A program made the translations under genes and the position numbers. Below, in pieces: positions 3,123 to 42,193 of a DNA stretch of 64,000 bases. Under the pieces are notes generated by a model. That model made no database searches, had not been told where the DNA came from, and saw only the letters and a list, made by a program, of their open reading frames with translations. Numbering within the stretch: position 1 is the first letter of the stretch; every line of letters starts with the position of its first letter. The stretch covers positions 1,096,835-1,160,834 of the forward strand of contig NZ_CP021455.1 of the NCBI RefSeq assembly GCF_002158865.1. The letters run 5' to 3'. Source of the DNA: Comamonas serinivorans (GTDB lineage: Bacteria; Pseudomonadota; Gammaproteobacteria; Burkholderiales; Burkholderiaceae_C).

Positions 3123-3710
3123 TCAAAACTGCACCTTGACGGGCTGCCGCTCGGCCTCGCTTTGCGTGGCCTGCAGCGCGCTGGCGGGCGTGAAGCCGGC
3201 CAGGCGCGCGACGAGCACCGTGGGCACGACCTGGCTGGCCGTGTTGAAGTCCAGCACGGCATCGTTGAACGCCTGGCGCGCAAAGCCGATGCGGTTTTCC
3301 GTGCTCGTCAGCTCTTCGCTGAGCTCGCGCATGGTCTGGTCCGCTTTCAGGTCGGGGTAGGCCTCGGACACCACCATCAGGCGCCCCAGGGCGCCCCCCA
3401 GCAGGCCATCGGCGGCGGCCAGGCCGGCCATGGCCTGGGCGTTGCCGGGTTCGCGCCGGGCCACCGCGGCGGCCGACTGCGCCTGGCCGCGGGCCGCGAT
3501 GACGGCCTGCAGCGTGTCGTGCTCGTGGCTCAGGTACTTCTTCGCCACCTCGACCAGGTTGGGCACCAGGTCGTGGCGGCGCTTGAGCTGCACGTCGATC
3601 TGGGCGAACGCATTGGCGATGCGGTTGCGCAGCTCGACCAAGCGGTTGTAGGCCATGACGGCCCAGACGATCACGCAAGCCAGCACGGCCGCTGCAATCC
3701 ACCATCCCAT
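3123..3710 (-). CDS. lemA: LemA family protein
   Basis: 195-aa product from MGWWIAAAVL. N-terminal TM followed by YNRLV.LRN....A.AQIDVQLKRRHDLVPNLVE, the LemA signature. The longer 3123..4499 ORF is an artefactual extension. Confidence 0.85.
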   Translation of the reverse strand: MGWWIAAAVLACVIVWAVMAYNRLVELRNRIANAFAQIDVQLKRRHDLVPNLVEVAKKYLSHEHDTLQAVIAARGQAQSAAAVARREPGNAQAMAGLAAADGLLGGALGRLMVVSEAYPDLKADQTMRELSEELTSTENRIGFARQAFNDAVLDFNTASQVVPTVLVARLAGFTPASALQATQSEAERQPVKVQF

Positions 3711-3775
3711 GTCGCACCTCCTCGATGTCGCCGCACCGTGCGGCGGTTGTGTGTCGGCCTGATGAGTCAGGGTTA

Positions 3776-3800
3776 GACATAACATGACGCATATTATGTC
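3776..3800. promoter_or_regulatory. AT-rich inverted repeat in lemA upstream region
   Basis: GACATAA-N11-TTATGTC, 66 bp upstream of the lemA start. Function unknown. Confidence 0.25.
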
Positions 3801-4061: not shown

Positions 4062-4376
4062 ATGAGCTTTGCCGACAACCTGCGTGACCTGCCCGCCATC
4101 GACCACCTGGCCGCCCTCGAGCTGCTGGACGAGGCGGGCCAGGTGGTGGCCTCGATCCCGAACCAGCCCGGCAAGGCGGGTTCGCTCAAGCTGTATGCGG
4201 CCCTGGCCGCCCGCCACGGCGCCATCAACCTGGCCGCCGCCGAAGAAGGCCTGGCCTTGTTCGCCGAACACACCGAGGATGCGCGCCAGCACCCGGGCAG
4301 CCACCCCAACATCGACCGCCTGTTCGAGGTCATCGCCACGGGCAAGCCCCTGTCGGTGCGCCTGTTGCCGGCTTGA
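4062..4376 (+). CDS. small conserved hypothetical protein
   Basis: 104-aa ORF with GC-rich third positions. Start at MSFADNL (alternative ATG at 4035). No family recognised with confidence. Confidence 0.45.
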   Translation: MSFADNLRDLPAIDHLAALELLDEAGQVVASIPNQPGKAGSLKLYAALAARHGAINLAAAEEGLALFAEHTEDARQHPGSHPNIDRLFEVIATGKPLSVRLLPA

Positions 4377-4406
4377 GGGGAGCCTCCTCGCGGTGTTTTG
4401 ATTCAA

Positions 4407-4459
4407 GGGGGTATGCGCCCATTTCCGTTTAAAGAAAAACGCAAGTGGATGCATACCCC
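4407..4459. repeat. nested-palindrome repeat family, copy R2
   Basis: GGGGGTATGC ... CCATTTCCGTTT-AAAGAAA-AACGCAAGTGG ... GCATACCCC. Confidence 0.8.
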
Positions 4460-4617
4460 ATGCATTGCGTGCGGATAAAGGGTGGCGCCATGCCGTCATG
4501 GCCAGCCATCCCGTCCCGGTGCCTCGGCCCCGCGCATGGGCTCAGGCACTTGGCCAGACGCCGACCCTACGGGCCGCCCGCCAACCGCAGACCCCCCATC
4601 GAGGTGGGTGCCGCCGG

Positions 4618-6603
4618 TCACTCGGGTGAGGGCGTCGGATCAGGGTGCCGCCTGCAGCCGTCAGTCGCCGGCTGCAACAGGTCTTGCACGCGTGCGCGCA
4701 TGGTCTCCAGCGTCTGCGCTTCGGGGGGCATGGCCTCGCCCACGCTCAGGCCCACCGGGCTGAAGGTCCCACGCCGGAATGGCTTGGTCATGGCGCCCGT
4801 GGGTTCGATGCGCGAGAAGTAGCTGCCCCAGAGGTTGGTCAGCGCCATGGGCACCACGGGCACGCTCAGGCCGTCGGCGCGCGCCTGCTCCAGGATCTTC
4901 AGCACCCCGCTCTTGAACGCACCCAGCTCGCCGTCGCGCGTGATGGCGCCTTCGGGGAAGATGGCCAGCAGCTCGCCTTCGCGCAGCACCTGGGCGGCTT
5001 CGACGAAGGCGCGCTCGTAGGCCGCGGGGTCGTCGCGTGCGGGGGCGATGGGGATGGCCTTGGCGAGCTTGAACAGCCAGCCCAGCACGGGCACCTTGAA
5101 GATCTGGTGGTCCATGATGAAGCGGATGGGCCGCGGGCTGGCCGCCATCAGCAGCACGGCGTCGATGAAGCTGACGTGGTTGGCGATGAGCACGGCCGGA
5201 CCGTCGGCCGGGATGTGGTCACGCCCGGTGATGCGGAAGCGGTACACCAGCTTGGTGAGCACCCAGGCGTGAAAGCGCAGCCAGTACTCGGGCACCAGGA
5301 AGAAGATGTAGGCCGCCACCAGCGCATTGGCGATGCCGGTGAACAGGAAGATCTGCGGGATGGAGAAGCCGGCCTGCAGCAGCGCGCCCGCGATCACGGC
5401 CGAGGCGATCATGAACAGCGCGTTGAGGATGTTGTTGGCCGCGATGATGCGCGCGCGGTGCGAGGGCCGGGCGCGCAGCTGGATGAGCGCGTACATGGGC
5501 ACGCTGAACAGGCCGGTGAACATCGACATCAGGCCCAGGTCGGCCATCACGCGCCAGTGCGCGCCCTGTTGCAGAAAGCCGCCCACGTCGAACAGGCCAC
5601 TGGCGGGCGGCGCGGGCAGGCTGCGCGTGGCGAAGAACAGGTCGATGGCGAACACCGTCATGCCGATGGCGCCCACGGGCACCAGCCCGATCTCGACCTG
5701 GTGGCCCGACAGCTTTTCGCACAGCAGCGCCCCCACGCCGATGCCGACCGAGAACACGGCCAGCAGCAGCGAGGCGACGTGGGCGTCGCAGTGCAGCACT
5801 TCTTTGGCAAAGGCCGGAAACTGGCTGAGGAACACAGCGCCGAAGAACCACATCCACGAGATGCCCAGCAGCGAGCGGAACACGGCCAGCTGCTCGTGCG
5901 CCAGGCGCAGGTTGCGCCAGGTTTCGGTCACAGGGTTCCAGTTCACCTGCAAGCCGGGGTCGGTGGCCGGCGACACAGGGATGAACTGCGCCGCAAGCCG
6001 CCCCAGCAGGGCCAGCACCACGCACGAGATGCCCACCCATTCGGGCCCCACCTGCGGCACCACCACCAGCACCCCGCCCACCAGCTGGCCCAGCAAGATG
6101 GCGACGAAGGTGCCCATTTCGACCATGCCGTTGCCGCCCGTCAGTTCGCGCTCGGACAGGTGCTGCGGCAGGTAGGCGAACTTCACCGGGCCGAACAGGG
6201 TGGAGTGCAGGCCCATGAGGAAGGTGCACAGCAGCAGCACCGGCACGTTGGCGCTGAAGAAGCCCCAGGCCGCCAGGGCCATGATGGCCACCTCCAGCCA
6301 TTTGACGAAGCGGATCAGCGCGCGCTTTTCCAGCTTGTCGGCCAGCTGGCCGCTGGTGGCCGAGAACACCAGATAGGGCAGGATGAACAGCGCGCCGATC
6401 ACCAGGCCCGCCATGTCGGCCGGCAGCCAGCTCACCTGCAGCATGTAGGTCACCATCACGGTGAACGCGAACTTGAAGAGGTTGTCGTTCGCGGCGCCGG
6501 CAAACTGGGTCCAAAAAAACGGCGCAAAGCGGCGCTGGCCCAGCAAGGCGAACTGCCCGGAGGGCGCTTGGCCGGCCTGGGCCTGGCGGGTCGATTCGGT
6601 CAT
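4618..6603 (-). CDS. MFS lysophospholipid transporter fused to acyltransferase (LplT/Aas-like)
   Basis: Twelve-TM MFS body followed by a PlsC-type acyltransferase domain with NHVSFIDAVLL (HX4D) and FPEGAITRDG. Start trimmed to MTESTRQ. Confidence 0.8.
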   Translation of the reverse strand: MTESTRQAQAGQAPSGQFALLGQRRFAPFFWTQFAGAANDNLFKFAFTVMVTYMLQVSWLPADMAGLVIGALFILPYLVFSATSGQLADKLEKRALIRFVKWLEVAIMALAAWGFFSANVPVLLLCTFLMGLHSTLFGPVKFAYLPQHLSERELTGGNGMVEMGTFVAILLGQLVGGVLVVVPQVGPEWVGISCVVLALLGRLAAQFIPVSPATDPGLQVNWNPVTETWRNLRLAHEQLAVFRSLLGISWMWFFGAVFLSQFPAFAKEVLHCDAHVASLLLAVFSVGIGVGALLCEKLSGHQVEIGLVPVGAIGMTVFAIDLFFATRSLPAPPASGLFDVGGFLQQGAHWRVMADLGLMSMFTGLFSVPMYALIQLRARPSHRARIIAANNILNALFMIASAVIAGALLQAGFSIPQIFLFTGIANALVAAYIFFLVPEYWLRFHAWVLTKLVYRFRITGRDHIPADGPAVLIANHVSFIDAVLLMAASPRPIRFIMDHQIFKVPVLGWLFKLAKAIPIAPARDDPAAYERAFVEAAQVLREGELLAIFPEGAITRDGELGAFKSGVLKILEQARADGLSVPVVPMALTNLWGSYFSRIEPTGAMTKPFRRGTFSPVGLSVGEAMPPEAQTLETMRARVQDLLQPATDGCRRHPDPTPSPE

Positions 6604-6901
6604 GGGGGCTTGGGTCCTGTGACGGCCTGGGGAAATGCGAGTGTGCGGCGCAGATTGTGAAGCCATGGCCGGCCGCACGGCCAGCGCCTGGACAGGCGGC
6701 GACGCCGCCAGGCTTGGTCGGATGCGTCGTCGTCCCCATCGACGCGGCGAACAGCTACGGTGAGTGGAGAGGACCAAGAGGGCAGGCCTGGGGCATTCGC
6801 CTGAGGACAGGGCGGCCACGCCGCCTCGCAGCGTCGCCCGAGGTGCCGGACGCGCGGCGGCCGGTGGACTCGGTGGGCGGCAGCGCGAACGCGACCCGGC
6901 A

Positions 6902-7753
6902 TCAGCGCCGCCGCATGGCCCAGCCGATGGGCACCACCGCCAGCGCCGCCACCGCGTGCTTGAGGCTGTGGCCGGCCACCCAGCCCTGGGTCAGCTCGAA
7001 CACGGCGTGGTCGCCCAGCTCCAGCACCTTGGCGGCGATGTAGGCCAGCACCACCCAAAGCCAGCGCACCCCCAGGCCGTCCGGCCGGTTGGGACTCAGG
7101 CCCAGACCCACCAGCAGCGCCAAGCCGGCGCCTTGCACCAGCGCCCAGGGCGTCATGTTGCCCACCTGCCAAGCCCACAGGGCCGCGCTGGCCGAGGCCA
7201 GCAGCAGCGGCAGCGGCAGCGCGCGACCCAGGCGGGGGCTCACGCGGTCGGCCACAGCCAGGCCGATCACGCCGGCAAAGGCCAGCGACATGCCGAGCCG
7301 GTCCACGGCCAGGCCCGCATCGCCGGGCGCCCAGTGGTAGACGCTGGAGCCCGCGGCCGTGGCGATCAGGCCCAGCACCACCCATCGCACGAGCACCATG
7401 CAAGTATGGTCGGCCATTCGATCATGGATGAAGGTAGATGAACCGATACCCGATGAAAAGATGGCGGCTCGCCGCCACAGCCACAGCGCCGCCAGGACGA
7501 ACGGTGCGTTGCTGAGCACGTCCAGGGCGTGCGGCAGTGCGCCCCAGGCGCGCTGGTCGGCGAAGTCGTGGTAGCCGGCGGGCAAGGGTGCGGCGGGCAG
7601 GCCGGCGGCCAGCACCACGGCGGCCAGCAAGGCCAGCAGCACGAGCCACTCGGCGCGGCGCAAGGGACCGAGGGCAGGGTGGGCGGGTTGGACGACGCCG
7701 GCCACGCCGGTAGACGGGGACGGGCGAGCGGCGGGCGGGCGAGCGTGTGGCAT
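6902..7753 (-). CDS. polytopic membrane protein, ceramidase (alkaline phytoceramidase)-like family
   Basis: YHDFADQR..G.P...DVLSN motif, several TM segments and SSVYHW/DRLGM motifs. Carries repeat copy R3 in frame (see findings). Confidence 0.5.
   Translation of the reverse strand: MPHARPPAARPSPSTGVAGVVQPAHPALGPLRRAEWLVLLALLAAVVLAAGLPAAPLPAGYHDFADQRAWGALPHALDVLSNAPFVLAALWLWRRAAIFSSGIGSSTFIHDRMADHTCMVLVRWVVLGLIATAAGSSVYHWAPGDAGLAVDRLGMSLAFAGVIGLAVADRVSPRLGRALPLPLLLASASAALWAWQVGNMTPWALVQGAGLALLVGLGLSPNRPDGLGVRWLWVVLAYIAAKVLELGDHAVFELTQGWVAGHSLKHAVAALAVVPIGWAMRRR
7403..7451. repeat. nested-palindrome repeat family, copy R3 (inside CDS 6902..7753)
   Basis: AGTATGG ... TTCGATCATGGATGAA ... CCGATACCC. 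Translated in frame as SGIGSSTFIHDRMADHTC. Locally AT-rich third positions. Confidence 0.6.
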
Positions 7754-7901
7754 TAGGCGCGACAAGGGGTGGACGCAGAAGTGGCCTGCACTGTGCGCAA
7801 GGCGCCGCCAACCGTCGCGTACATTGCGCCTCGGTGGCGCGGCTTCACGCTCAGGGTATCGTCGCACGCGCCCGAACCATCGACACGGAGGGAGGATTTC
7901 G

Positions 7902-8633
7902 ATGAGCACCACGCAGGACCTGGTCACCGCACTCAAACACGAACTGAAGGCCGCGCAGATGACCTATGCGGACCTGGCCAAGGAGCTCGGCATGGCCGAG
8001 TCCAGCGTCAAACGCATGCTGGCCAAAGGCGACATGCCGCTGACCCGCATCGACGCCATCTGCCGTGCGCTCAAGCTCGACTTTGCCGACCTGGCGCGCC
8101 GCGTGGCCGACGCCCAGCCCCTGCTCAGCCAGCTCACGCAGGCCCAGGAGGTGGCCGTGGTGGCGGACAAAAAGCTGCTGCTGTGCGCCATCTGCGTGCT
8201 GAGCCACTGGACGCTGGAGCAGATCTGCGAGGCCTACCGCATCGACGAGCCCGAGTGCATCCGCCACCTGGTGATGCTCGACCGCATCGGCATCATCGAG
8301 CTGCGGCCGCTGAACCGCTACCGCCTGAAGCTGGCCAAGACCTTCCGCTGGCGGCCCAACGGCCCGGTGATGGATTTCTTCCGCGAGAACGTGCTGCTGG
8401 ATTACTACGGCGGCAGCTTCGACCGCGACGACGAGGTGCTGCAGCTGGTGCACGGCACCATCGGCCACAGCATGGGGCCGGTGTTCGTCGAACGCATCCA
8501 GCGCATTGCGCAGGACTTTGCCAAGCAGCACCTGGCCGATCAGAAGCTGCCTGACGACATGCGCGAGGGCTACACCCTGCTGCTGTCCATGCGGCGCTGG
8601 GAATTCGCGGCCTTCACCGCCTTGCGGCGCTGA
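7902..8633 (+). CDS. XRE-family helix-turn-helix transcriptional regulator
   Basis: N-terminal HTH (MTYADLAKELGMAESSVKRMLAKGDM). RBS GGAGGGAGG lies upstream of the ATG at 7902. Confidence 0.7.
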   Translation: MSTTQDLVTALKHELKAAQMTYADLAKELGMAESSVKRMLAKGDMPLTRIDAICRALKLDFADLARRVADAQPLLSQLTQAQEVAVVADKKLLLCAICVLSHWTLEQICEAYRIDEPECIRHLVMLDRIGIIELRPLNRYRLKLAKTFRWRPNGPVMDFFRENVLLDYYGGSFDRDDEVLQLVHGTIGHSMGPVFVERIQRIAQDFAKQHLADQKLPDDMREGYTLLLSMRRWEFAAFTALRR

Positions 8634-27512: not shown

Positions 27513-27730
27513 GGCGAGGTCCTTGGCAAAAACCGACGGCTGACGAGGGACGGGCACGGCGGGCATGCCGTGCGCGGGTTCACTGCCCGGCCAGCTTTGC
27601 AAGCCTGGGCGGCCGAGGCTGTGCTTTAGGCGTCAGCGCAGGCCGCAGATGCCGTGCCTGGCCGGTGGCGAACGCCCGCCTGCGGCCGCGGAGCGCGCGG
27701 CGGCCAGGCGGACTAAAATCACCGGCTTCG

Positions 27731-27847
27731 CACCAAGGAGCGCTGCAGTTGGCCCAGGCCTTGCCTGGCCGGGCCTGTCAGGCTTGGTGCGGAACGTGTC
27801 GCGCCGGCCACGCCTGCGCTGGCGCGTGGTGTCAACGGCGCTCACCT
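27731..27847 (+). promoter_or_regulatory. SAH (S-adenosylhomocysteine) riboswitch in the metH leader
   Basis: CCAAGGAGCGCTGC (27733-27746) ... CAGGCTTGG (27779-27787) ... CAACGGCGCTCACC (27833-27846) match the conserved SAH-element cores (AGGAGCGCUGC / CAGGCUCGG / AACGGCGCUCAC). P1 is CCAAG/CTTGG and extra hairpins occupy the variable positions. CTCACCTG (27841-27848) can pair with CAGGTGAG (27872-27879), which contains the metH RBS. Confidence 0.75.
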
Positions 27848-27883
27848 GTTGTGTTGCTTGTCGGTTTTTTGCAGGTGAGTGTG

Positions 27884-31420: not shown

Positions 31421-32581
31421 TCACCCTGGCTGGCGCAGCGTCACCAGGCCGTTCAGCACCTGATCGAGCCCGCCGACGACGGAGATCTTGTCGATGCGCT
31501 CGGCCACGCGCTCCAGCGTTTCCAGCTCCTTCATGCGCAGGGCGACGGGGTTGCCCTCCATCACCTTGGCGGTGTTCAACAGCGAACGCGTGGCCGCCGT
31601 TTCCTCGCGGCGGCGGATCACGTTGGCCTGGGCCGACTTTTCGGCCTCCACGACCTGGGCGAGGATGGTCTTCATCTCGCCGGGCAGGATGATGTCTTTC
31701 ACGCCCACGCTGTCCAGCGCCACGCCCGATTCAGCCAGGCGCTCGCGCACCTGGGCCAGCACGGCGCCATCGATGGCGGCCTTGTTTTCCAGCAACGCAT
31801 CCAGGTTCTGTTCGCCCACGGCGGCGCGCAGGCCGAATTGCAGCTCGCGGTAGACGTGGTCGGCTGGCTTGGGCATGCGCGCCAGCGCGCGCTGCACGTC
31901 GGTGAAGTGCCACACGGCCGAGAGGTTCAGTCGCAGGCCCACCTTGTCACGGGTCAGGATTTCCTGGCCATTCACCTCGGCGATCTGCGCTCGCAGGTCC
32001 ACGGTGCTCACGCTCACCTGACGGTTGAAGCGCCAGAAGCCATGCACGCCTGCCGGCAGCAGCGCTTGCATCTGGCCGTCCAGCGTGAGCACGCCAGCGT
32101 GGAACTCGGGCACCTGCACCAGCAGCACGCCGTCCAGGCCGCGCACGGCGCGCGGGCGCAGTGCCACGCTGTGCAGCTTGGCCAGCAACTCGGCGGGCAG
32201 GCGCGCGTCGGCGCTCAGGTCGACCACGTCCACGCGCTGTTCGCGCAGGCCGCGCCAGAACAGCTGGCGCGTGGACGGCGGCAGGATCTCGACCAGCACG
32301 CCGTCTTCGTGGCGCAGGCCGACCTCGGTTTCGCCCAGCACCACCTGCACGAACTCGCGGGCCAGCAGGGCCGGCTCGTGGGCTACGAAGTAGTCGGCCA
32401 GCTCGTGCTCAAAGCGCGCCGGCGCGTCCGGTTTGCCCAGCGAAAAGCGTTCCAGCGTCACATCGTCCAGGCCTGTGAACACGCGGTGCTTGCCCGGGCC
32501 AAACAGGCCGGCGAAATCGCCATCGCGCAGCAGCAGCGCGCGTTCGTGCTTTTTGACGGTGAAAATGGTGAATCCCAGCAT
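31421..32581 (-). CDS. SPFH/Band-7 (slipin-like) domain protein without TM segment
   Basis: C-terminal half: VGVKDIILPGEMK.ILAQVVEAEK.AQANVIRRREETAATRSLLNTAK is typical SPFH plus coiled-coil. N-terminal ~180 aa form an extra beta-rich region. RBS GGGAGAG. Confidence 0.75.
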   Translation of the reverse strand: MLGFTIFTVKKHERALLLRDGDFAGLFGPGKHRVFTGLDDVTLERFSLGKPDAPARFEHELADYFVAHEPALLAREFVQVVLGETEVGLRHEDGVLVEILPPSTRQLFWRGLREQRVDVVDLSADARLPAELLAKLHSVALRPRAVRGLDGVLLVQVPEFHAGVLTLDGQMQALLPAGVHGFWRFNRQVSVSTVDLRAQIAEVNGQEILTRDKVGLRLNLSAVWHFTDVQRALARMPKPADHVYRELQFGLRAAVGEQNLDALLENKAAIDGAVLAQVRERLAESGVALDSVGVKDIILPGEMKTILAQVVEAEKSAQANVIRRREETAATRSLLNTAKVMEGNPVALRMKELETLERVAERIDKISVVGGLDQVLNGLVTLRQPG

Positions 32582-32933: not shown

Positions 32934-33040
32934 CCGCGGCAATGGGCGGGAATCGAACCCGCAGCCGCCACCGAAGTCGCGGTGTTCAACCATGAACAAG
33001 TCTTGGACCGAAACCAAGCGTCACCTCAGCCCATCCGCGG
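32934..33040 (-). ncRNA. tRNA-like structured RNA 3 (canonical T-arm, extended bulged stem)
   Basis: Minus strand: closing stem CCGCGGATGG / CCAT-TG-CCGCGG and a canonical T-arm GCGGG-TTCGATT-CCCGC. Internal hairpins are CTTGG-TTTCGGT-CCAAG, TGTTCA-TGGT-TGAACA, and CCGCGAC-TTCG-GTGGCGG (UUCG tetraloop). It begins ~85 nt downstream of promoter P1. Confidence 0.55.
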
Positions 33041-33134: not shown

Positions 33135-33150
33135 TGCAGACGCCGTGCCA
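33135..33150 (-). promoter_or_regulatory. sigma-54 promoter P1 (divergent from rtcR)
   Basis: Minus strand reads TGGCACGGCGTCTGCA, with GG and GC elements at the exact consensus spacing (TGGCAC-N5-TTGCW). Confidence 0.7.
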
Positions 33151-33312: not shown

Positions 33313-34965
33313 ATGAAACCCATTCACGTCATCACCTTCCTGGGCACCCAGCTGGACAGCGGCAACGGTGCCGGCCGCTGGGAGAAGTGGCGGCCCACCG
33401 TGGCGCTGACCCAGCACGAGGACATGGAGGTCGCGCGGCTGGACCTGCTGCTGACCGGGCCCAGCCACCGGGCGCTGGCCGAGCGCGTGCGCGCCGACAT
33501 CGGCACGGTGTCGCCCGCCACCGAGGTCGTGCTGCACGAGTTGGCCGTGGACGATCCCTGGGACTTCGACGTCGTCTACACGCAGCTGTTCGATTGGGCC
33601 CGCGCGCAGGCCTTCGATACCGAGGCCGCGCAGTACTGGGCGCACATCACCACCGGCACGCATGTGGCGCAGATCTGCCTGTTCCTGCTGACCGAGTCGC
33701 GCGTGCTGCCCGGGGTGCTGTGCCAGACCTCGCCGCCCAAGCGGCAGCGCGAGGGCGCGGCCGGTGCCTACACGCTGATCGACCTCGACCTCTCGCGCTA
33801 CGACGCCATCGCCCAGCGCCATGCGGCCGACCAGCGCGATGCAGTGGCCTTCCTGAAAAGCGGCATCGCCACGCGCAATGCGCGCTTCAACGCGCTCATC
33901 GACGAGGTCGAGCGCGTGGCCGTGCGCTCCACCGCGCCGGTGCTGTTCGTGGGGCCCACGGGCGCGGGCAAGTCCTTCCTGGCCCGGCGCATGCACGAGC
34001 TGAAGAAATCGCGCCACCAGATCAACGGCGCCTTCGTCGAAGTCAACTGCGCCACGCTGCGTGGCGACGGCGCGGCCTCGACGCTGTTCGGCCACAAGCG
34101 CGGTGCTTTCACCGGCGCCGCCACCGACCGGCCCGGCCTGCTGCGCGCCGCCGATGGTGGGCTGCTGTTCCTCGACGAAATCGGCGAGCTGGGGGCCGAC
34201 GAGCAGGCCATGCTGCTCATGGCCATCGAAGACAAGCGCTTCTACCCCCTGGGTTCGGACCGCGAGGTGACCAGCGACTTTCAGCTGGTGGCGGGCACCA
34301 ACCGCGACCTGCGCGCCGAGGTCGCCGCGGGGCGGTTTCGCGAAGACCTGTTCTCGCGCATCAACCTGTGGACCTACGAGCTGCCTGGCCTGGCGGGCCG
34401 GCCTGAGGACATCGAACCCAACGTCGACTACCTGCTCACCCGCCATGCGCAAGCCTCGCGCCGCGCGGCCCGCTTCAACGTCGAAGCGCGCCGCGCCTAC
34501 CTGCGCTTTGCGCAAAGCGGCGAAGCGCTGTGGCGCGGCAATTTCCGCGACCTGTATGCCAGCGTGACGCGCCTGGCGACCCTGGCCGAGGGCGGGCGCA
34601 TCACCGAGCCGCTGGTGGTGGCTGAGATCAAACGGCTGCGCTGGATGTGGACGCGCGACAGCGCGGTGGCGGCGCCCGGCGCGCGCGCCTCGGGGGGCTC
34701 GCCGGGGGCGATGGCGGTCGATGCGGCGAGCGTGGACCTGGCCGACTTCTACGACGAAGCGGCCCTGGAGCAGATCGACCTGTTCGACCGCGTGCAGCTG
34801 CAGGGCGTCATCGCGGTGTGCCAGCGCTCGCGCACGCTGTCGGACGCGGGGCGCCAGCTGTACCAGGCCTCGCGGGCGCAACGCGCGGCGTTGAACGATT
34901 CGGACCGCCTGCGCAAGTACCTGGCCAAGTTCAACCTGAGCTGGGACCGCGTCAGCACACGATGA
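33313..34965 (+). CDS. rtcR: sigma-54-dependent transcriptional regulator RtcR (CARF-AAA+-HTH)
   Basis: Collinear over the full length with E. coli RtcR as I recall it: WEKWRPTV N-terminal region, HITTGTHVAQICLFLL, GPTGAGKSFLARR, GAFTGA loop, FLDEIGELG, and C-terminal DRLRKYLAKF HTH. Confidence 0.85.
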   Translation: MKPIHVITFLGTQLDSGNGAGRWEKWRPTVALTQHEDMEVARLDLLLTGPSHRALAERVRADIGTVSPATEVVLHELAVDDPWDFDVVYTQLFDWARAQAFDTEAAQYWAHITTGTHVAQICLFLLTESRVLPGVLCQTSPPKRQREGAAGAYTLIDLDLSRYDAIAQRHAADQRDAVAFLKSGIATRNARFNALIDEVERVAVRSTAPVLFVGPTGAGKSFLARRMHELKKSRHQINGAFVEVNCATLRGDGAASTLFGHKRGAFTGAATDRPGLLRAADGGLLFLDEIGELGADEQAMLLMAIEDKRFYPLGSDREVTSDFQLVAGTNRDLRAEVAAGRFREDLFSRINLWTYELPGLAGRPEDIEPNVDYLLTRHAQASRRAARFNVEARRAYLRFAQSGEALWRGNFRDLYASVTRLATLAEGGRITEPLVVAEIKRLRWMWTRDSAVAAPGARASGGSPGAMAVDAASVDLADFYDEAALEQIDLFDRVQLQGVIAVCQRSRTLSDAGRQLYQASRAQRAALNDSDRLRKYLAKFNLSWDRVSTR

Positions 34966-35019: not shown

Positions 35020-35133
35020 AAGGCTAAGCATTCCACAATGGGATGATCAACAGCGCGCCCGCCGGCTTGCACGGTGGGGCGCATGCAGCGGCTGGCCCAA
35101 GGCCGGGTGCACGACATGGAGAGGGAGACGCAC

Positions 35134-35802
35134 ATGGCGCAGTACATCGAGGTCATTGGACAGGCCAGCGTGAGCGAAGTGGCCGTGGAGCAGCGCGTGG
35201 CGCTGACGGTGTCGCACCGCGGCAAGGGCGGTGGCATGTCGGACAAGGTGGTGGCGCACAAGGCCACGCAGCAGCGTGAGCGGGTGATCGCCACGCTGCT
35301 GGCCCACGGCATGCGGGAGCACGAATTGCATGAGGGCGGCATGGACAGCGGCACCTGGCACTTCAAGCGCAAGCGCGAGGTGCACCACAGCCACCGCATC
35401 CTGCTGATCTGCGAGGACGACGCGCGCCTGTTTGCGGCCCTCGAGGCCCTGGCGCCGCTGCAGGACGAGGGCGAGCTTGACTTGCAACTGGACATGCTGG
35501 ACGCCCGCTACGAGGTGCCGGCCGGTGCGCTGAGCGGGGCGCAGCAGGCGGCGGTGGCGCATGCCCGTGAGCATGCGAATGGCCTGGCGCAGGCTGCCGG
35601 CGTGGCGCTGGGCGCGGTGGTGCAGGTGCAAGAGCTGGCGCCGGCGCGGGAGCGTTCGGGTGCCTATGGCGAGTCCTGGTATGGCTTGGCCGCCGCAGGC
35701 GGCGCGGCTGCGGCACCGGCCATGACCCTCTTGGCGAGTAACCAGCGCACGCGCACCTTGAGCTACCGCGTGCGCTTTGCGCTGCAGCGGGCTGTGCCCT
35801 GA
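35134..35802 (+). CDS. SIMPL (DUF541)-like protein, no signal peptide
   Basis: YIEVIGQASVSEVAVEQRVALTV...A...A...A..LAQAAGVALGAVVQVQE pattern. RBS GGAGAGGGAG lies 6 nt upstream of the ATG at 35134. Confidence 0.55.
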   Translation: MAQYIEVIGQASVSEVAVEQRVALTVSHRGKGGGMSDKVVAHKATQQRERVIATLLAHGMREHELHEGGMDSGTWHFKRKREVHHSHRILLICEDDARLFAALEALAPLQDEGELDLQLDMLDARYEVPAGALSGAQQAAVAHAREHANGLAQAAGVALGAVVQVQELAPARERSGAYGESWYGLAAAGGAAAAPAMTLLASNQRTRTLSYRVRFALQRAVP

Positions 35803-35883
35803 CGCGCGTCGTTCGCCGCAACGCCTGGGCCGCGGTGGCCTGAATGTCGGTCCGACCGTGCACTGGGCAGGACGTGGGGCCAG

Positions 35884-35916
35884 TGAATCGCCTGCAACGC
35901 CCCTGCAGACGATTCA
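35884..35916 (+). promoter_or_regulatory. candidate enhancer (UAS) inverted repeat upstream of P2
   Basis: TGAATCG-N19-CGATTCA lies 110-140 bp upstream of P2. It shares the GATTCA core with sites upstream of P1 and P3. Confidence 0.35.
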
Positions 35917-36025
35917 TGGGCGGGCGTAGAGTTCGCATCGAAAGCGATACAGTGGGATCGTGTTCGGCGGTCATGGTGGCGTGCAGCCCTGCTGTCGCCC
36001 TGGGGTGAAGCGGGATGGGCCGAAC

Positions 36026-36041
36026 TGGCACGGCCGTTGCG
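36026..36041 (+). promoter_or_regulatory. sigma-54 promoter P2
   Basis: TGGCACGGCCGTTGCG is a perfect TGGCAC-N5-TTGC. The predicted start lies a few nt before the stem of tRNA-like RNA 1 (36059). Confidence 0.75.
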
Positions 36042-36058
36042 AAGGATGAGGTGAACGT

Positions 36059-36146
36059 GGGCCCAGGTCTGGGGTGGCGCAAAGCGAGCGCGTCGGACTT
36101 GAATCCGAAGGGTGCTGGTGCAAGTCCAGCCCCCAGACCTGGGCCC
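36059..36146 (+). ncRNA. tRNA-like / Y-RNA-like cloverleaf RNA 1
   Basis: Perfect 16-bp stem GGGCCCAGGTCTGGGG (36059-74) / CCCCAGACCTGGGCCC (36131-46). It encloses TG, D-like arm GCGC-AAAGCGA-GCGC, G, anticodon-like arm TCGGA-CTTGAA-TCCGA, AGGGT, and T-like arm GCTGG-TGCAAGT-CCAGC. There is no CCA end. Confidence 0.65.
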
Positions 36147-36292
36147 GCGAAACCCGGGGGCGCGACGGCGCGAGGCAGGCCTTGACGCGGCGGCCGTGTC
36201 GGCAAGGGTGCAGCGAGAAGCGGCTACCAGGCCGGTTGCCACGCATCGCAGCCCGTCGGCCAGCCCGACCGGCAGGGGATGAGGTCAGGTGT

Positions 36293-36373
36293 GCAACGGT
36301 CTGGCGCAGTTCAAGGAGAACGCCCGACCATGCATCGGGAAGGTGCTGGACAAGCCAGCCGCCAGACCGTTGC
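36293..36373 (+). ncRNA. tRNA-like / Y-RNA-like cloverleaf RNA 2 (paralogue of RNA 1)
   Basis: Perfect 14-bp stem GCAACGGTCTGGCG / CGCCAGACCGTTGC. It encloses CA, GTTC-AAGGA-GAAC, G, CCCGA-CCATGCA-TCGGG, AAGGT and GCTGG-ACAAG-CCAGC. The topology matches RNA 1, with compensatory changes in the D-like and anticodon-like stems. Confidence 0.65.
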
Positions 36374-36422
36374 GCATGGGCCAGTCCCCGTCCCGATCCA
36401 CACGAACACAGGGAGAGCGGCC

Positions 36423-39320
36423 ATGGGCCAGCACGACGAAGAGCACTCACCGGACGCCGGTGAGCACCCGGTGCCGCCGGCGCATGCGGCATCCGGGCTT
36501 GCCCAGGCGAACCCGGGCTGGGCAGCCGGCCAGCTTGCACGCGCCCGTGCGGCTTTGGCACAGGCACAGGTACAGCGGGACCCGTCAGGGCCCGACGCGG
36601 CCGGCGCTGCGTCATCCGCGGATACCGACGCTGCAGGCCACGCCGTGGCGCGTGCGCTGGCCAAGGTGAATGCCTGGCGCCAGGCCTTGGCCGGCATGGC
36701 CAGTGGCGAGCTGCAGGTGGGGTCGCGCACGCCGCTGCGCAACGTGGCGGCCTGGCTCACGCCGAATGTGTTGCACGGCGGATTCGCCTCGGGCCAGCTG
36801 ATGGCCGGGGGGCGCGCGCAAGCACACGAGACGCACTGGCTGGCGCAACTGGCGGCCGGTCAGCCGCTGGGCAGCACGCCGACCGACTGTGCCCGGATGG
36901 CCACGCTGGCGGCACAGCCCGTGGACCGCAGCACGCTGCCCCAGAAGCTGGACCGCACGCCGCTGAACGACTGGTTCCTGACCGAGGCGGGCCTGCAGCA
37001 GCTGATGCAGTGGCTGGACGACGGCCGCTGGCGCATCGCCGTGCCCGAGGAGGGCGCCTTGCTGGTGGTGGCCTGGCTGCTGAGGCAGGGGCATGACACC
37101 TCGGCGGCCCGCCTGTTGGACACCCTGTCGCCCTACTGGCACCGCGTTCGCTTTTACCCGCAGCCCGCTGCGACGCCCATGCCGGCGCTCGACCGCGTGA
37201 GCCTGCGCAGCGCGCAGGACGTGATGGCGCAGTTGAACCAGCTGCAGACGCCGCCCGCGGTGCTGGCCCAGCACCAAGCCATCCACGTGTGGCGCCCCTT
37301 GCTCGACGAGCTGGTGCTGCTGTGGCTGCAGGCCGTGCCCGGCGCGCTGCACGGCCCTGACGCTGCCGCGGCCCATGGCGAATCCGGGCGAGGTGCCGAC
37401 GGCGCCGTGACGGATGCGCTGCCGCGCCTGCGTGCCGGCACGCGCGAGGCCGAAGGCGGCTTGCCCCTGGCCGAGCCCGACGCCGACTGGCGGCAGCAGG
37501 CGGCGGCCTGGCGCCTGCGGGCGCGCGAGGCCGAGGCGCAGCACACGCGCAGCCGGGCGCACCGCAAGCCCGGCTCGCACGTGGCGCAGTTGTGGGCCAT
37601 GCTGGACCAGGTGCTGCAAGGTCAGGCCCTGAGCGAGGCACAGCGCCGCCGGCTGCGCTTTGTGCTGGCGTGCCAGGTCAGCGCCCATGGCGTGCCAGGC
37701 GATGCGAGGCACCACACCTGGCGCGCCGCGCAACGGGCGCAGACCGACACCGTGTGGCGCGCCCACTGGGCGTACGCACTGGCCGCGCGCGTGCAGGCGC
37801 AGGGCCCCTACGCGCTGGGCGATGGCCTGCCGGATCTGGACACCGCGCTGCAAGCTGCCACGGCGCAAGAGGCACAACAACATGCGCACCTGCCCGAAGG
37901 CACCGTGGTCTGGCCCAGCCTGCGCCGCAAGCTGCGCCGCGCCCACTTGGCCACCGTGCCGCAGCTGGTGCAAGCCGGCATCGTGCCGTCGAGCGAGGTG
38001 CTGGCCAGCGTGCTGCCCGGCACCACGGGCGCACAGCTGGCGCGCACCATGCCCGATGCGGCCAGCGCGCGGCTGCTGGGCGCGCTGTGGCGTGCGTTTC
38101 GCGGGCGACGCTCGGTGCTGCTGCTGAACCACGAGTCGCAGGTGCGCTTTCACGAGCTGCCCTGGGTGCTGCGCTTGCAGCAGCACGCCTGCGTGCCGGC
38201 GACGGCCGCCGGGACCGAGGGCGATTCGGCACATCGCTGGGACATGGCCGGCCTGGCGCGCAGCCAGGCGTTGGCGCAGCTGGATGCGGCCGCGCGCCTG
38301 GCGCTGACGCAATTCCCGCAATCGGCCTTCCCGAACCCGCTGCTGTGGGAGCTTCGCGCGCTGGCCGAGCAGGGTGGCTGGCAGCCGCCGTGGGTCGAAG
38401 ACATCGCGGCCGACATCTTCATGGGCAGCTTTGGGCCCAAGTTCGGGCAGGCCGTGCACGACGCGCTGCCCTGGTTGCAGGGCAGCCTGTATGCGCAGCA
38501 TTTCCAGCTCGACCTGGAGGCGCTGCGCCTGGCCATGGCGCCGGCCGTGGCCTGCCACGCGGCCTTTCAGCGTTACGCCGAAACGCCAGCGGGCTCACCC
38601 GGCAACCCCGCGGCCAAGCGCGAACAACAGGCCTTGCTGCAGCGCTATCACGCGGCGCCCGACCTGCTGGTGGCGCACCTGCGTGCGCGCACGGGCTGGT
38701 CGGCCGACGCCCGCGGCGTGGGCGCGAATGGCGCCGTCATCGAGCAGATGGGCCTGGTCAGCACGGCCAACTTCGCGCCGCTGGCGCAGCGCTTTGGCTG
38801 GGGCGTGGCCGGTGCCGGTTTGCGCGATGCCACGGCCCAGGCGCGCGAGCTCCAGGGGTGGGCGCAGGCCGCACGCACGGGCTTCGAGCGGCTGTGCGCG
38901 GGGCTGGACCTGGGCGTGCGCGAAGCCGGCGCCATGCTGGACAAGCCGCCAACCCAGATCCAGGCGACAAACCCGGCGGATGCCCATGCGGCAGCGACAG
39001 AAGCCCAGGCCGCCGACCGCCTGCTGGCCGAGCGCGTGCGCCGGGCCGCCACCAGCTGGCGCCAGGTCGTGCTGCTGCTGAGCCTGCTGCCCGCCGAGCA
39101 GCAGCGCGCCAACCTGCTGGGCATGCAGCGCCACCTCGCGGCCTGTGACACCCCCGCCAGCCGGGGCGTGACGCGCGCCCTGGCGCCCCAGCTGGCCGAC
39201 CTGATGGCCTGTGTGCAAGGCCAGGCGCGCGACGCCGGTCGGCCACCGTTCCACGGCTGGACCCAGCCAGGGCAGCGGGGCGTGCTGTTCACCCTGCGCC
39301 AGGGCCTGAAGGCCGGGTGA
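36423..39320 (+). CDS. large orphan protein (965 aa), predicted all-alpha, no recognised domain
   Basis: Longest frame in the region. RBS GGGAGAG upstream of the ATG at 36423. Ala/Leu/Gln/Trp-rich composition, versus an Arg/Gly-rich antisense ORF. Lies downstream of sigma-54 promoter P2 and the two tRNA-like RNAs. Confidence 0.6.
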   Translation: MGQHDEEHSPDAGEHPVPPAHAASGLAQANPGWAAGQLARARAALAQAQVQRDPSGPDAAGAASSADTDAAGHAVARALAKVNAWRQALAGMASGELQVGSRTPLRNVAAWLTPNVLHGGFASGQLMAGGRAQAHETHWLAQLAAGQPLGSTPTDCARMATLAAQPVDRSTLPQKLDRTPLNDWFLTEAGLQQLMQWLDDGRWRIAVPEEGALLVVAWLLRQGHDTSAARLLDTLSPYWHRVRFYPQPAATPMPALDRVSLRSAQDVMAQLNQLQTPPAVLAQHQAIHVWRPLLDELVLLWLQAVPGALHGPDAAAAHGESGRGADGAVTDALPRLRAGTREAEGGLPLAEPDADWRQQAAAWRLRAREAEAQHTRSRAHRKPGSHVAQLWAMLDQVLQGQALSEAQRRRLRFVLACQVSAHGVPGDARHHTWRAAQRAQTDTVWRAHWAYALAARVQAQGPYALGDGLPDLDTALQAATAQEAQQHAHLPEGTVVWPSLRRKLRRAHLATVPQLVQAGIVPSSEVLASVLPGTTGAQLARTMPDAASARLLGALWRAFRGRRSVLLLNHESQVRFHELPWVLRLQQHACVPATAAGTEGDSAHRWDMAGLARSQALAQLDAAARLALTQFPQSAFPNPLLWELRALAEQGGWQPPWVEDIAADIFMGSFGPKFGQAVHDALPWLQGSLYAQHFQLDLEALRLAMAPAVACHAAFQRYAETPAGSPGNPAAKREQQALLQRYHAAPDLLVAHLRARTGWSADARGVGANGAVIEQMGLVSTANFAPLAQRFGWGVAGAGLRDATAQARELQGWAQAARTGFERLCAGLDLGVREAGAMLDKPPTQIQATNPADAHAAATEAQAADRLLAERVRRAATSWRQVVLLLSLLPAEQQRANLLGMQRHLAACDTPASRGVTRALAPQLADLMACVQGQARDAGRPPFHGWTQPGQRGVLFTLRQGLKAG

Positions 39321-39710: not shown

Positions 39711-40454
39711 ATGCCTTTACGCATCGACGAAGCCATCACCCAGCTGGATCACGGCTGGCTCAGCCATTTGAAATCGCAGGGTTACGGCGGCGATGCCTTG
39801 CGCCAGGCGATCGACCTGGTGCTGTACGCCCAACAGCAGGCGGCGGCGCGCAACAGCGCCGAGTTCAAGGCCGCCATCGCGCGCGTCAACCACCTGGTGG
39901 GGGCGGGCATCGCGTGTGACAACAACGGCGACTACCTGTACACGGCCGAGTGGCGCGACCCGGCTTGCGCCGGGCTGGGCTTCGCCATCGAATACGCGGC
40001 CGACCCGGCCAGCTGGCGGGCCGAGTTCCGCATGCCCGGCTGCTGGCCGCACACCGTGGACAACCTCGACATCACCGACACCCGCGCTGTGGACCACGAC
40101 TTTGCGCTCTGGCTGGCGCGCGCCAGTGCCCGCCATTTCACGCACCTGATCGAACGCCAGCTGCCCGAAGGCGAAGCACTGCGCGCGCCCTGTACGGCGG
40201 CCGTGCGGGCCGGCACCTGGGCCGAATTCGTGTGCCTGCACCCACTGCAACCCGTGGCCCGCCTGGGGCACGAGCGGCTGGAGCAGGCCGCCTGGTCGGC
40301 CCAATACCCCAGTGCCGCCCAGCGCGAGTTGCAGGCCCGCTTCGATGTGCAGAGCGCCTTGCTGCTGCGCTTGATCGTGGTTCAGCAGGCAGCATGGGCT
40401 TGGCATGAAGAGTATGGCGACAATCGCGATGACGATTCAACGGGAAGGCATTGA
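39711..40454 (+). CDS. orphan protein (247 aa), no recognised domain
   Basis: ORF between the 965-aa gene and rtcA on the same strand. The last ~15 codons and the stop lie in repeat copy R16. Confidence 0.5.
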   Translation: MPLRIDEAITQLDHGWLSHLKSQGYGGDALRQAIDLVLYAQQQAAARNSAEFKAAIARVNHLVGAGIACDNNGDYLYTAEWRDPACAGLGFAIEYAADPASWRAEFRMPGCWPHTVDNLDITDTRAVDHDFALWLARASARHFTHLIERQLPEGEALRAPCTAAVRAGTWAEFVCLHPLQPVARLGHERLEQAAWSAQYPSAAQRELQARFDVQSALLLRLIVVQQAAWAWHEEYGDNRDDDSTGRH

Positions 40455-40934: not shown

Positions 40935-40950
40935 TGGCACGCCGCGTGCA
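40935..40950 (+). promoter_or_regulatory. sigma-54 promoter P3 (rtcA)
   Basis: TGGCACGCCGCGTGCA has correct GG/GC spacing and lies 38 nt upstream of the rtcA ATG. Confidence 0.65.
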
Positions 40951-40987: not shown

Positions 40988-42193
40988 ATGCCAACCGACG
41001 ACCAGGTGGAGGCGAAGCCGCGTCACCGTGACCCAGCTCGCACGGCCACCGCCGCAGACACCAAAAGCGTGACCGGCGCAGCGCAGACGGGCCGTGGCGC
41101 AGCCATCGAGATCGATGGCTCGCAGGGCGAGGGCGGCGGGCAGATCCTGCGCACGGCGCTGGCCTTGTCCATGATCACCGGCCAGCCGCTGCACCTGCGC
41201 GCCATCCGCGCCAAGCGGCCCAAGCCCGGGCTCATGCGCCAGCACCTGATGTGCGTGCAGGCGGCCGCGCAGGTCAGCGGGGCCCACATCAGCGGGGCCG
41301 AGCTGGGGGCCACCGAGTTGCGCTTCGCGCCGGGCCCGGTGCGGGCGAGCGCCTACGAATTTGCCATGGCCAGCGCAGGCAGCTGCATGCTGGTGCTGCA
41401 GACCGTGCTGCCGGCGTTGATGCTGGCCGATGCCCCCAGCACGCTGGTGCTGCGGGGCGGCACGCACAACCCCATGGCGCCCAGCTTCCACTTTGTGCGC
41501 GATGCCTTTGCGCCGCTGGTGCAGCGCCTGGGCGCCGGCCTGACGCTGCAGCTGCAGCGGCTGGGCTTTTACCCCGCAGGCGGTGGCGAGGTCACGGCCA
41601 CCATCACGCCTGCGGCCCGCCTGACCCCGTTCGACCTGACCGAGCGTGGCGAGCTGCAGCAGGGCGATGCTCTGTGCCTGACGCCGGGGCTGTCGGGGTC
41701 GATCGCGCGCCGCGAGCTGACGGCGCTGGGCCAGGCCATGGGCTGGGGCGAGGACCGCTTGCGCTTTGGCGAGGCCAGGCAGCACGAGGGGCCGGGCAAT
41801 GCCTTGATCGCCCGCCTGCGCTACGCCCACGTGACCGAGGTGTTCGTCGAGCTTGGGGCCCGCAACCTGTCGTCGGAGCAGGTGGCCGGCAAGCTGGTGC
41901 AGGCCATCCGGGCGTTTCAACGCCGGCCAGGTGCCGCGGTGGGCCCACACTTGGCCGACCAGCTGGTGCTGCTGCAGGCCCTGGCCGTGTGGCAGGCCGG
42001 ACGGACCGGCAGCCAGGCGGATGCGCCCCACGCCGATGTGCCCCAGGCGGATGTGCCGCAAGCACGCTTCTCGTGCAGCGAGGTGACCGAGCACTTGCGC
42101 ACCAACTGCGTGGTGATCGAACGCTTTCTGCCCGTGCGCTGCACGCTGACCCAGGGCCCTGTGTCCCGGGTGACGGTGCGCTGGGCGGGGTGA
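40988..42193 (+). CDS. rtcA: RNA 3'-terminal phosphate cyclase RtcA
   Basis: IEIDGSQGEGGGQILRTALALS..TG.P..L..IRA.R..PGL..QHL. RBS GGGAG upstream of the ATG at 40988. N-terminal ~35-aa extension and a 15-nt x3 in-frame repeat near the C-terminus. Confidence 0.85.
   Translation: MPTDDQVEAKPRHRDPARTATAADTKSVTGAAQTGRGAAIEIDGSQGEGGGQILRTALALSMITGQPLHLRAIRAKRPKPGLMRQHLMCVQAAAQVSGAHISGAELGATELRFAPGPVRASAYEFAMASAGSCMLVLQTVLPALMLADAPSTLVLRGGTHNPMAPSFHFVRDAFAPLVQRLGAGLTLQLQRLGFYPAGGGEVTATITPAARLTPFDLTERGELQQGDALCLTPGLSGSIARRELTALGQAMGWGEDRLRFGEARQHEGPGNALIARLRYAHVTEVFVELGARNLSSEQVAGKLVQAIRAFQRRPGAAVGPHLADQLVLLQALAVWQAGRTGSQADAPHADVPQADVPQARFSCSEVTEHLRTNCVVIERFLPVRCTLTQGPVSRVTVRWAG
42017..42061 (+). 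repeat. 15-nt x3 in-frame tandem repeat inside rtcA
   Basis: GCGGATGCGCCCCAC / GCCGATGTGCCCCAG / GCGGATGTGCCGCAA, encoding ADAPH-ADVPQ-ADVPQ. Confidence 0.7.

Follow-up and report, generated by a model that had tools for sequence, protein, structure and literature searches.

Two tRNA-shaped RNAs precede the gene of a large conserved protein in an RtcR/sigma-54 RNA-repair locus of Comamonas serinivorans

Why does a transcript for RNA repair open with two RNAs that have the shape of tRNA and no free 3′ end? The question is raised by a 64-kb stretch of the Comamonas serinivorans genome (GC content, 70%; hereafter, the window), in which an initial annotation made from the sequence alone had placed two tandem cloverleaves, RNA1 and RNA2, behind a predicted sigma-54 promoter and ahead of a gene for a protein of 965 amino acids (aa). 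We analysed the two structures, their relatives in other genomes and the genes around them. RNA1 and RNA2 are real, strand-specific tRNA-shaped RNAs. The link to the 965-aa protein, which the initial annotation had suggested, is the key to the whole locus: in most genomes with this protein, its gene is co-transcribed with a tRNA-like RNA, and in several unrelated lineages the two adjoin RNA-repair genes.

Both cloverleaves were recovered where they had been drawn, and the anatomy given for them is correct apart from the helix lengths corrected below. For RNA1, ARAGORN called a tRNA-like RNA with an abnormal loop at 36068–36139, and the Rfam tRNA model (RF00005) matched 36068–36138 over its full length with 52.8 bits (gathering score, 29). 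For RNA2, the same model gave no match even at E≤10, and the anatomy is carried by the minimum-free-energy fold, which is the cloverleaf described in the initial annotation. The Rfam scan proposed there thus succeeded for one copy: at the gathering score and at E≤10, it returned the tRNA model on RNA1 only, and no bacterial Y RNA, transfer-messenger RNA or other family on either. The z-scores of the folds were −6.6 for RNA1 and −6.0 for RNA2, and none of 200 shuffled sequences was as stable. The long closing stems exist, and are longer than first counted: instead of 16 and 14 bp, they comprise 19 bp in RNA1 (36056–36074 paired with 36131–36149) and 18 bp in RNA2 (36289–36306 paired with 36360–36377) when G-U pairs are included. 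The sequence strings reported as common to the two copies are all present, as are the paired substitutions between them in the D stem (GCGC/GCGC versus GTTC/GAAC) and in the anticodon stem (TCGGA/TCCGA versus CCCGA/TCGGG). The possibility of a chance hairpin was rejected on the shuffled sequences and the covariation described below. A translated region was likewise rejected, on the GC content of third codon positions, of which no signal was detected from 35803 to approximately 36420, within the gap of approximately 620 nt between the stop codon of the preceding gene (35802) and the ATG at 36423.

The arms of both RNAs follow the order of a tRNA (acceptor, D, anticodon, variable, T, acceptor), with the long helix extending the acceptor, and depart from a canonical tRNA at several sites. 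The anticodon loop of RNA1 (CUUGAA) has 6 nt instead of the canonical 7 nt with U33, and that of RNA2 (CCAUGCA) has C at position 33. The canonical elbow, formed by G18G19 and T54-psi55-C56, is absent from both RNA1 (D loop AAAGCGA, T loop UGCAAGU) and RNA2 (D loop AAGGA, 5-nt T loop ACAAG). From positions 73–74 onward, both RNAs are paired with the 5′ leader. As the initial annotation had noted, no CCA end is encoded, and there is no single-stranded acceptor end, the ends being sealed in the helices. The acceptor of RNA1 and RNA2, TCTGGGG/CCCCAGA, is identical to that of the second copy at a Pirellulaceae locus (L026), which is described below.

Homologues of the 965-aa protein gave at least 508 matches among the GTDB species genomes. 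We examined 89 homologue loci, including the best 80 genome loci, which belong to Streptomyces and other Actinobacteria, Variovorax, Massilia, Alpha- and Gammaproteobacteria, Planctomycetota, Verrucomicrobiota, Acidobacteriota, Chloroflexota and one deltaproteobacterial metagenome-assembled genome. ARAGORN reported one or two same-strand ‘tRNAs’ just 5′ of the homologue in approximately 60 of these 80 loci. Based on 51 copies, RNA1 and RNA2 among them, we built a covariance model, R1, which found family copies on the same strand just 5′ of the homologue in 72 of the 80 loci; 57 of these had a single copy, 14 had two and one had four. Family members scored 72–91 bits on R1, compared with 33–57 bits for genuine tRNAs at the same loci. 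The window copies, on which R1 had been trained, scored 70.8 bits (RNA1) and 58.4 bits (RNA2); their orthologues outside the training set scored 72.5 bits (RNA1-type) and 52.9–58.0 bits (RNA2-type).

In an alignment of 96 copies, 99.9% of the cells were occupied by standard pairs, and compensatory changes were found at 17 of the 21 pairs. None of 500 shuffled alignments reached the observed values, and slid controls fell to 33–44% paired; the G-U pairs fix the strand as plus. The conserved body consists of the acceptor, GUAGCUCAG..AGAGC, the anticodon stem, C32/U33, AGGGC and the T arm. The anticodon positions 34–37 are the most variable part of the RNA, with an entropy of 1.46–1.89 bits among 61 distinct actinobacterial copies, compared with mostly less than 0.3 bits elsewhere, and more than 15 different anticodon triplets stand on one body. 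Of 89 copies, 79 have an anticodon loop of 7 nt, and seven have one of 5–6 nt. With a free anticodon and, in some copies, so short a loop, the family RNAs do not have the fixed identity of tRNAs that decode. G18G19 and the T loop UUCGAAU are retained in non-actinobacterial copies, many of which encode N73-CCA; in actinobacterial copies the elbow is altered, with the T loop GGCGGAA and without T54, psi55 and G18G19. As a separate observation, two Massilia strains with flanking genes of 99–100% identity differ in the anticodon of the gene-proximal copy (TCG versus CCG).

The start codon of the protein gene follows the RNA after 0–2 nt in 54 of the 72 positive loci (GGC[UU]AUG) and after 8–32 nt, often with a Shine–Dalgarno sequence, in all but one of the remaining loci; at one locus (L073), the encoded CCA and the ATG have an A in common. 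Because the start codon lies so near the RNA and no plus-strand terminator was found (in the window, from 35700 to 36700), the two are co-transcribed. RNA1 and RNA2 likewise stand directly 5′ of a homologue on the same strand. A plain 7-bp acceptor and a start codon within approximately 0–32 nt are the rule in the family, while the window RNAs have 11–12 additional base pairs, and approximately 45–50 nt, with a GGGAGAG ribosome-binding site, lie between the end of RNA2 and the ATG. The RNAs of the window clade are a divergent, hairpin-locked variant of the family.

The protein that accompanies these RNAs is identical (100%) to CCO03_04750. A word-seeded search gave 39 relatives, and a full hidden Markov model search gave 1871 clusters at 50% identity from many phyla. 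Searches of Pfam, NCBIfam, PADLOC, PHROGs and the PDB sequence profiles with the protein and 38 relatives gave no match. The AlphaFold2 model, made from 39 sequences, is mostly helical (predicted local distance difference test, 88; predicted template-modelling score, 0.86), and no structural neighbour of it was found among solved structures. Invariant across the relatives are acidic, Arg and Asn residues, among them E62, R104, E135, R488/R489, D590, N695 and E700 in the numbering of the relative P0001; they would be compatible with an enzyme, which is speculation. Clustering of open reading frames across the 80 loci gave no third conserved gene beyond lineage-level synteny, and RtcR and RtcA accompany the protein in a few lineages only; therefore, the conserved unit is the tRNA-like RNA plus the large protein. 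No relatives were found in the viral contigs of IMG/VR, and the only plasmid relatives were on seven actinobacterial megaplasmids, which makes a mobile defence element unlikely. With respect to the gene itself, the database start (GTG 36645, 891 aa) is probably 74 codons short; the ATG at 36423 keeps the N-terminal motif PGWAAGQLARA, and a relative of 63% identity (P0002) covers 99% of the 965-aa form.

Closer relatives of the window locus were found on five metagenome contigs (L081–L085), the large proteins of which are 55–63% identical to that of the window. The order on these contigs is RtcR, sigma-54 motif, RNA1, RNA2, large protein, a protein of 250–330 aa, a protein of approximately 730 aa and RtcA. 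In all five, both types of RNA stand directly 5′ of the homologue on the same strand, the first copy being more tRNA-like and the second having a 5-nt T loop (L081, L082 and L085), with an extra D-loop insertion in L081 and L085. The anticodon-like loop of RNA1 in this clade has 5–6 nt. The helix extensions have unrelated sequences that nevertheless pair, namely, GGGCCCAGG/CCUGGGCCC in the window, GCAAAGG/CCUUUGU in L082 and GGUUCAAG/CUUGAGCC in L085, and they covary among the window and the three metagenomic relatives L082, L085 and L081. Such paired extensions of unrelated sequence indicate that the long closing helix is under selection in the window clade. Together with the covariation across the family, this bears out the selection on RNA structure that the initial annotation had proposed: homologous loci keep the stems by compensatory changes. 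Two pattern scans of metagenome DNA for further hairpin-locked orthologues gave no hits and then two chance hits without a model match.

The locus in the window (Table 1) reads RtcR, DUF541 gene, sigma-54 motif, RNA1, RNA2, 965-aa protein, 247-aa protein, second sigma-54 motif and RtcA. The start predicted from the first sigma-54 motif lies approximately 3–5 nt 5′ of the RNA1 helix, in agreement with the initial annotation, and the motif is kept at an equal distance in L081, L082 and L085. The RtcR encoded upstream is 84% identical to the RtcR at the equivalent position in L082. RNA1 and RNA2 are thus placed in an RtcR/sigma-54 context throughout the window clade, and RtcR, RtcA and the sigma-54 motifs mark it as an Rtc-type RNA-repair locus, in which the tRNA-like RNAs and uncharacterized proteins occupy the place of rsr-yrlBA-rtcB in Salmonella. 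For the SIMPL/DUF541 gene, tblastn gave no match at any other compared locus, and it is uncertain whether this gene is part of the RNA/protein unit. The 247-aa protein had no match in the Pfam and PHROG searches.

Table 1. Coordinates of the features around RNA1 and RNA2 in the window
Feature	Position	Strand	Support
rtcR, sigma-54-dependent activator (RtcR/CARF N-terminal domain and sigma-54 AAA+)	33313–34965	+	Pfam RtcR 6.3e-76, Sigma54_activat 5.5e-49
SIMPL/DUF541 gene between rtcR and the RNAs	35074–35802	+	Pfam SIMPL 8e-11
Sigma-54 −24/−12 motif TGGCACGGCCGTTGC	36026–36040	+	Pattern match
RNA1, tRNA-like cloverleaf (core 36068–36139; 19-bp closing helix; 6-nt anticodon-like loop)	36056–36149	+	ARAGORN, Rfam, R1, fold
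RNA2, degenerate tRNA-like cloverleaf (core 36300–36368; 18-bp closing helix; 5-nt T loop; 5-nt D loop)	36289–36377	+	Fold, R1
965-aa, mostly alpha-helical protein CCO03_04750, conserved partner of tRNA-like RNAs	36423–39320	+	Homologues, AlphaFold2 model
247-aa protein, conserved after the large protein in the closest relatives	39711–40454	+	Third-position GC signal; genes of 252–327 aa at the equivalent site in L081, L082 and L085
Second sigma-54-like motif TGGCACGCCGCGTGC, 5′ of rtcA	40935–40949	+	Pattern match, sequence
rtcA, RNA 3′-terminal phosphate cyclase	40989–42193	+	Pfam RTC 4.6e-74, NCBIfam equivalog 1.7e-111

Several other observations were made in the window. Between 40455 and 40930, it has approximately 480 nt of non-coding DNA where L081, L082 and L085 carry the gene of approximately 730 aa, which matches phrog_33734, has no Pfam match and is lacking in the window. 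A third, weak tRNA-like signal (18.3 bits on R1; no Rfam family match) lies on the minus strand at 32938–33006 and includes a perfect T arm, GCGGGUUCGAUUCCCGC, at 32946–32962. It is located approximately 130 nt 3′ of a sigma-54-like motif, TGGCACGGCGTCTGC (33136–33150, minus strand), which points away from rtcR and toward a Band7/SPFH gene (31421–32581). Further away, an S-adenosylhomocysteine riboswitch (27729–27850, plus strand; 48 bits) and a Bcj11-like Burkholderia small RNA (5794–5915, minus strand; 69 bits) exceed the Rfam gathering scores.

The RNA/protein module adjoins RNA-repair genes outside this clade as well. In Chloracidobacterium (L010), it lies at the end of RtcR (minus strand)|DUF6847|..|RtcB|RtcA, and in a Pirellulaceae genome (L026) at the end of RtcR (minus strand)|Ro60|RtcB, where Ro60 is in the same operon, upstream of RtcB, and separate from the tRNA-like copies and the large protein. 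In a Rhodothermales genome (L035, 6292–12274), RlaP and Pnkp, the latter with kinase, phosphatase and ligase domains, directly precede the large protein in what appears to be a single operon without a tRNA-like gene. In Massilia (L089, 3223–11502; L067, 6720–14717), an elongation factor G (EF-G) paralogue and small EF-G domain IV proteins precede the module, after which an AAA_33 kinase and an RNA ligase are encoded on the other strand. On the metagenome contig L082, a Ro60 gene (4351–5919, minus strand) lies on the opposite strand, approximately 3.8 kb away; just 3′ of it, several weak R1 matches (3275–3798, minus strand; 12–21 bits) are plausibly YrlA-type Y RNAs separate from the module on the same contig. 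Two further observations concern these loci. The RtcB of the Chloracidobacterium Rtc operon (6615–8567) carries an intein (Pfam Intein_splicing 6.8e-20). In an Anaerolineales genome (L039, 7049–9825), the large protein, without a tRNA-like gene, directly follows a DISARM-like pair composed of a PLD-family protein and a helicase that bears an MrfA Zn-binding domain, which may indicate a defence-island setting.

In conjunction, these results lead us to favour, with moderate confidence, the view that RNA1 and RNA2 are structured RNAs from the 5′ leader of an RNA-repair transcript driven by RtcR and sigma-54, and belong to a family of tRNA mimics that serve the 965-aa protein in its dealings with damaged tRNA. 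Under this proposal, damaged tRNA would activate RtcR, and the promoter ahead of RNA1 would fire. The first approximately 330 nt of the transcript would fold into two L-shaped tRNA mimics, the ends of which, sealed in the 18–19-bp helices, would leave them without CCA, amino acid or a role in decoding. The mimics could then act as a dedicated tRNA-shaped ligand of the 965-aa protein, be it as a subunit of a ribonucleoprotein, as a pseudo-substrate or as an operator. In this way, the activity or synthesis of the protein would depend on the condition of the tRNA pool, alongside RtcA (in other lineages, RtcB, Pnkp or RNA ligase).

A number of points weigh against this proposal. Binding of the RNAs by the 965-aa protein is something we infer rather than observe directly, as are the direction of effect between RNA and protein and the idea that damaged tRNA is what the two sense or act upon. 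Most loci, those of Streptomyces, have no RNA-repair neighbours, and tblastn of the 64-kb window gave no match to RtcB. The sigma-54 pattern occurs in the window three times, compared with 2.8 expected by chance. RNA2 and its orthologues, at 53–58 bits on R1, fall inside the range of genuine tRNAs, and the family membership of the RNA2-type copies is argued from position and the common acceptor sequence. Among the 89 homologue loci, 11 have no adjacent tRNA-like gene, namely, L086, L088, L091 and 8 of the 80 genome loci; with roughly one locus in eight devoid of it, the RNA is not strictly required beside the gene. Finally, an RNA that nearly runs into the start codon could have a role exclusively in cis.

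According to such a cis explanation, the leader would be cut by RNase P and RNase Z, drawn by the tRNA shape, or by RNase III acting on the long helices. The cut would make a translatable mRNA 5′ end and couple expression to tRNA-processing capacity, and the excised RNA would have no task of its own. We give this a minor but appreciable chance. In Actinobacteria, it is strongly supported by the start-codon fusion; for the window, the explanation is weaker. Where the ATG follows within 2 nt, there is no room for a Shine–Dalgarno sequence, and a 3′ cut would leave a leaderless mRNA; the overlap of CCA and ATG at L073 and the loci that do without the RNA agree with it as well. In the window, however, the longer spacer holds an ordinary ribosome-binding site, and the processing sites are buried in the closing helices. 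RNase P and RNase Z read mainly the acceptor and T arms, whereas conservation in the family extends, far beyond the needs of these enzymes, to the D arm, the anticodon stem and C32/U33, and arrays of two to four copies would be superfluous for a single cut.

A second alternative is that the RNA is a decoy or sentinel for anticodon nucleases: it would compete with real tRNAs or be cut itself, and the cyclic-phosphate fragments would feed back on RtcR or change the expression of the downstream protein. The hypervariable anticodon triplet in a frozen body, the retention of C32/U33 and the prevalence of the 7-nt loop are what a bait would show, as are the tandem copies, which within one locus all differ in anticodon, and the near-identical Massilia strains, which differ only there. 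The RNA-repair neighbours of the module also suit this role, and a competitive-inhibitor role has been proposed for operon-encoded YrlA (PMC7790460). Nevertheless, the variability is equally explained by absent constraint, and, with anticodons as widely spread as these, the difference between tandem copies lacks significance. In the window clade, RNA1 with its 5–6-nt loop and RNA2 without U33 would be poor baits. No nuclease partner was identified, and this reading does not account for the protein. On balance, we consider a decoy rather unlikely.

The resemblance to YrlA/YrlB to which the initial annotation had pointed does not amount to kinship. Literal Y RNAs of this type, which bind Ro60 and tether it to nucleases, would account for a long helix combined with a tRNA-like domain and for tRNA-like RNAs encoded in an operon that RtcR/sigma-54 controls, of which Salmonella rsr-yrlBA-rtcBA is an instance (PMC4201824). 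RNA1 and RNA2, however, fail three defining features, namely, the permuted domain, the GNCGAAN0-1G motif (neither it nor GNCGAA occurs in 36026–36430) and a Ro60 neighbour within approximately 4 kb on the same strand; Pfam gave no Ro60/TROVE protein among the neighbours and tblastn with two Ro60 proteins gave no match in the 64-kb window, confirming the absence of a Ro gene that had been noted at the outset. Since Ro60 coexists with the module in L026 and L082, the module is not a substitute form of the Ro/Y RNA pair, and we regard membership as very improbable. Scarcely credible at all are ordinary tRNA genes, decayed pseudogenes or integration-site remnants standing beside the gene by chance: although many family members receive ordinary anticodons from ARAGORN and some encode N73-CCA, the multitude of anticodons (more than 15) on one conserved body, R1 scores well above those of neighbouring real tRNAs, the loss of T54, psi55 and G18G19 from actinobacterial copies, a position and strand relative to the protein that are fixed across phyla and a pairing level (99.9%) not expected of pseudogenes all speak against this, and for the window copies, which lack a free 3′ end, it is refuted.

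We propose, tentatively, a broader interpretation of the family, in which a tRNA mimic and a protein of approximately 800 aa might form a widespread, undescribed two-part system for the surveillance or repair of damaged tRNA. The protein would read or act on tRNA shape, leaving the anticodon free, and the C. serinivorans clade would have wired the pair into the RtcR response with the ends locked in Y-RNA-like helices. Our literature search met no description of the RNA family or of the protein, although an earlier mention in Burroughs and Aravind 2016 is possible. Rfam 15 contains no family other than tRNA that matches. The pairing of a protein with a tRNA mimic encoded in its operon is, as a kind, known already; the chance that the complete system is new is substantial. 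Operon-encoded tRNA mimics in bacterial RNA-repair loci have been known only from the Ro60/YrlA pair, and the present one would be a second, independent and apparently larger pairing. It offers a handle on how bacteria deal with damaged tRNA beyond ligation, a test case for the recognition of tRNA shape by a protein independently of the anticodon and, in Actinobacteria, a case of fusion between a tRNA-like element and a start codon. A further implication is that approximately 90 ‘tRNA’ genes with arbitrary anticodons are probable annotation mis-calls.

Among known systems, the E. coli thrS operator is bound by ThrRS, mimics the anticodon arm only and has its anticodon-like loop as the key determinant. 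As in the present family, a tRNA-shaped element adjoins the ribosome-binding site of the gene of a presumed tRNA-binding protein, an arrangement that would allow autoregulation by competition with cellular tRNA; here, in contrast, the element is a whole cloverleaf, the anticodon varies freely and the protein is not a synthetase. In tRNA punctuation and in mascRNA, which are mitochondrial or eukaryotic nuclear, RNase P and RNase Z cut a tRNA-like element from a longer transcript. There, too, the element abuts another functional RNA, and a 3′ cut in the present family would set the mRNA 5′ end at the start codon in the 54 loci with near-fusion. The present elements, however, are bacterial and specific to one gene family, and those of the window have helix-locked ends and an ordinary ribosome-binding site downstream. 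In type III toxin–antitoxin systems, ToxI repeats, which are 36-nt pseudoknots followed by a terminator, lie 5′ of toxN, and the toxins are small endoribonucleases. One to four tandem structured RNAs directly 5′ of a presumed bound protein, on the same strand, are common to both. The present RNA, however, is a tRNA mimic without a terminator and its partner an unrelated protein of approximately 800 aa, with no PADLOC match and no IMG/VR relatives. Membership of the type III systems was rejected on the lack of a plus-strand terminator and of a PADLOC match and on the 965-aa protein having no known fold.

The tRNA-ProX of Streptomyces, which has A33/A34 and G21, lies beside proSx/murG and is charged and decodes (PMC10404621), resembles the present RNAs in its non-canonical body with varied anticodons and in its tie to a specific neighbour gene. 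The present family, with U33, another neighbour and, in Actinobacteria, an aberrant T loop, was judged to be a different one. Another known system is the pair of YrlA/YrlB and Ro60 (Rsr) in Salmonella rsr-yrlBA-rtcBA. YrlA has a circularly permuted tRNA-like domain, in the order T, closed acceptor and D; its long Ro-binding helix stands at the position of the anticodon stem, and the acceptor is closed by a loop (PMC4201824). YrlA carries GNCGAAN0-1G in the 5′ strand of the long helix and lies beside a TROVE protein, whereas the window RNAs keep the native order of arms, lack the motif and Ro60, and have an unrelated partner protein, and their family is found mostly outside Rtc operons. Both systems place a tRNA-mimicking noncoding RNA in a repair operon under RtcR/sigma-54, with a presumed co-encoded protein partner, and both join a long helix to a tRNA-like domain in two tandem copies.

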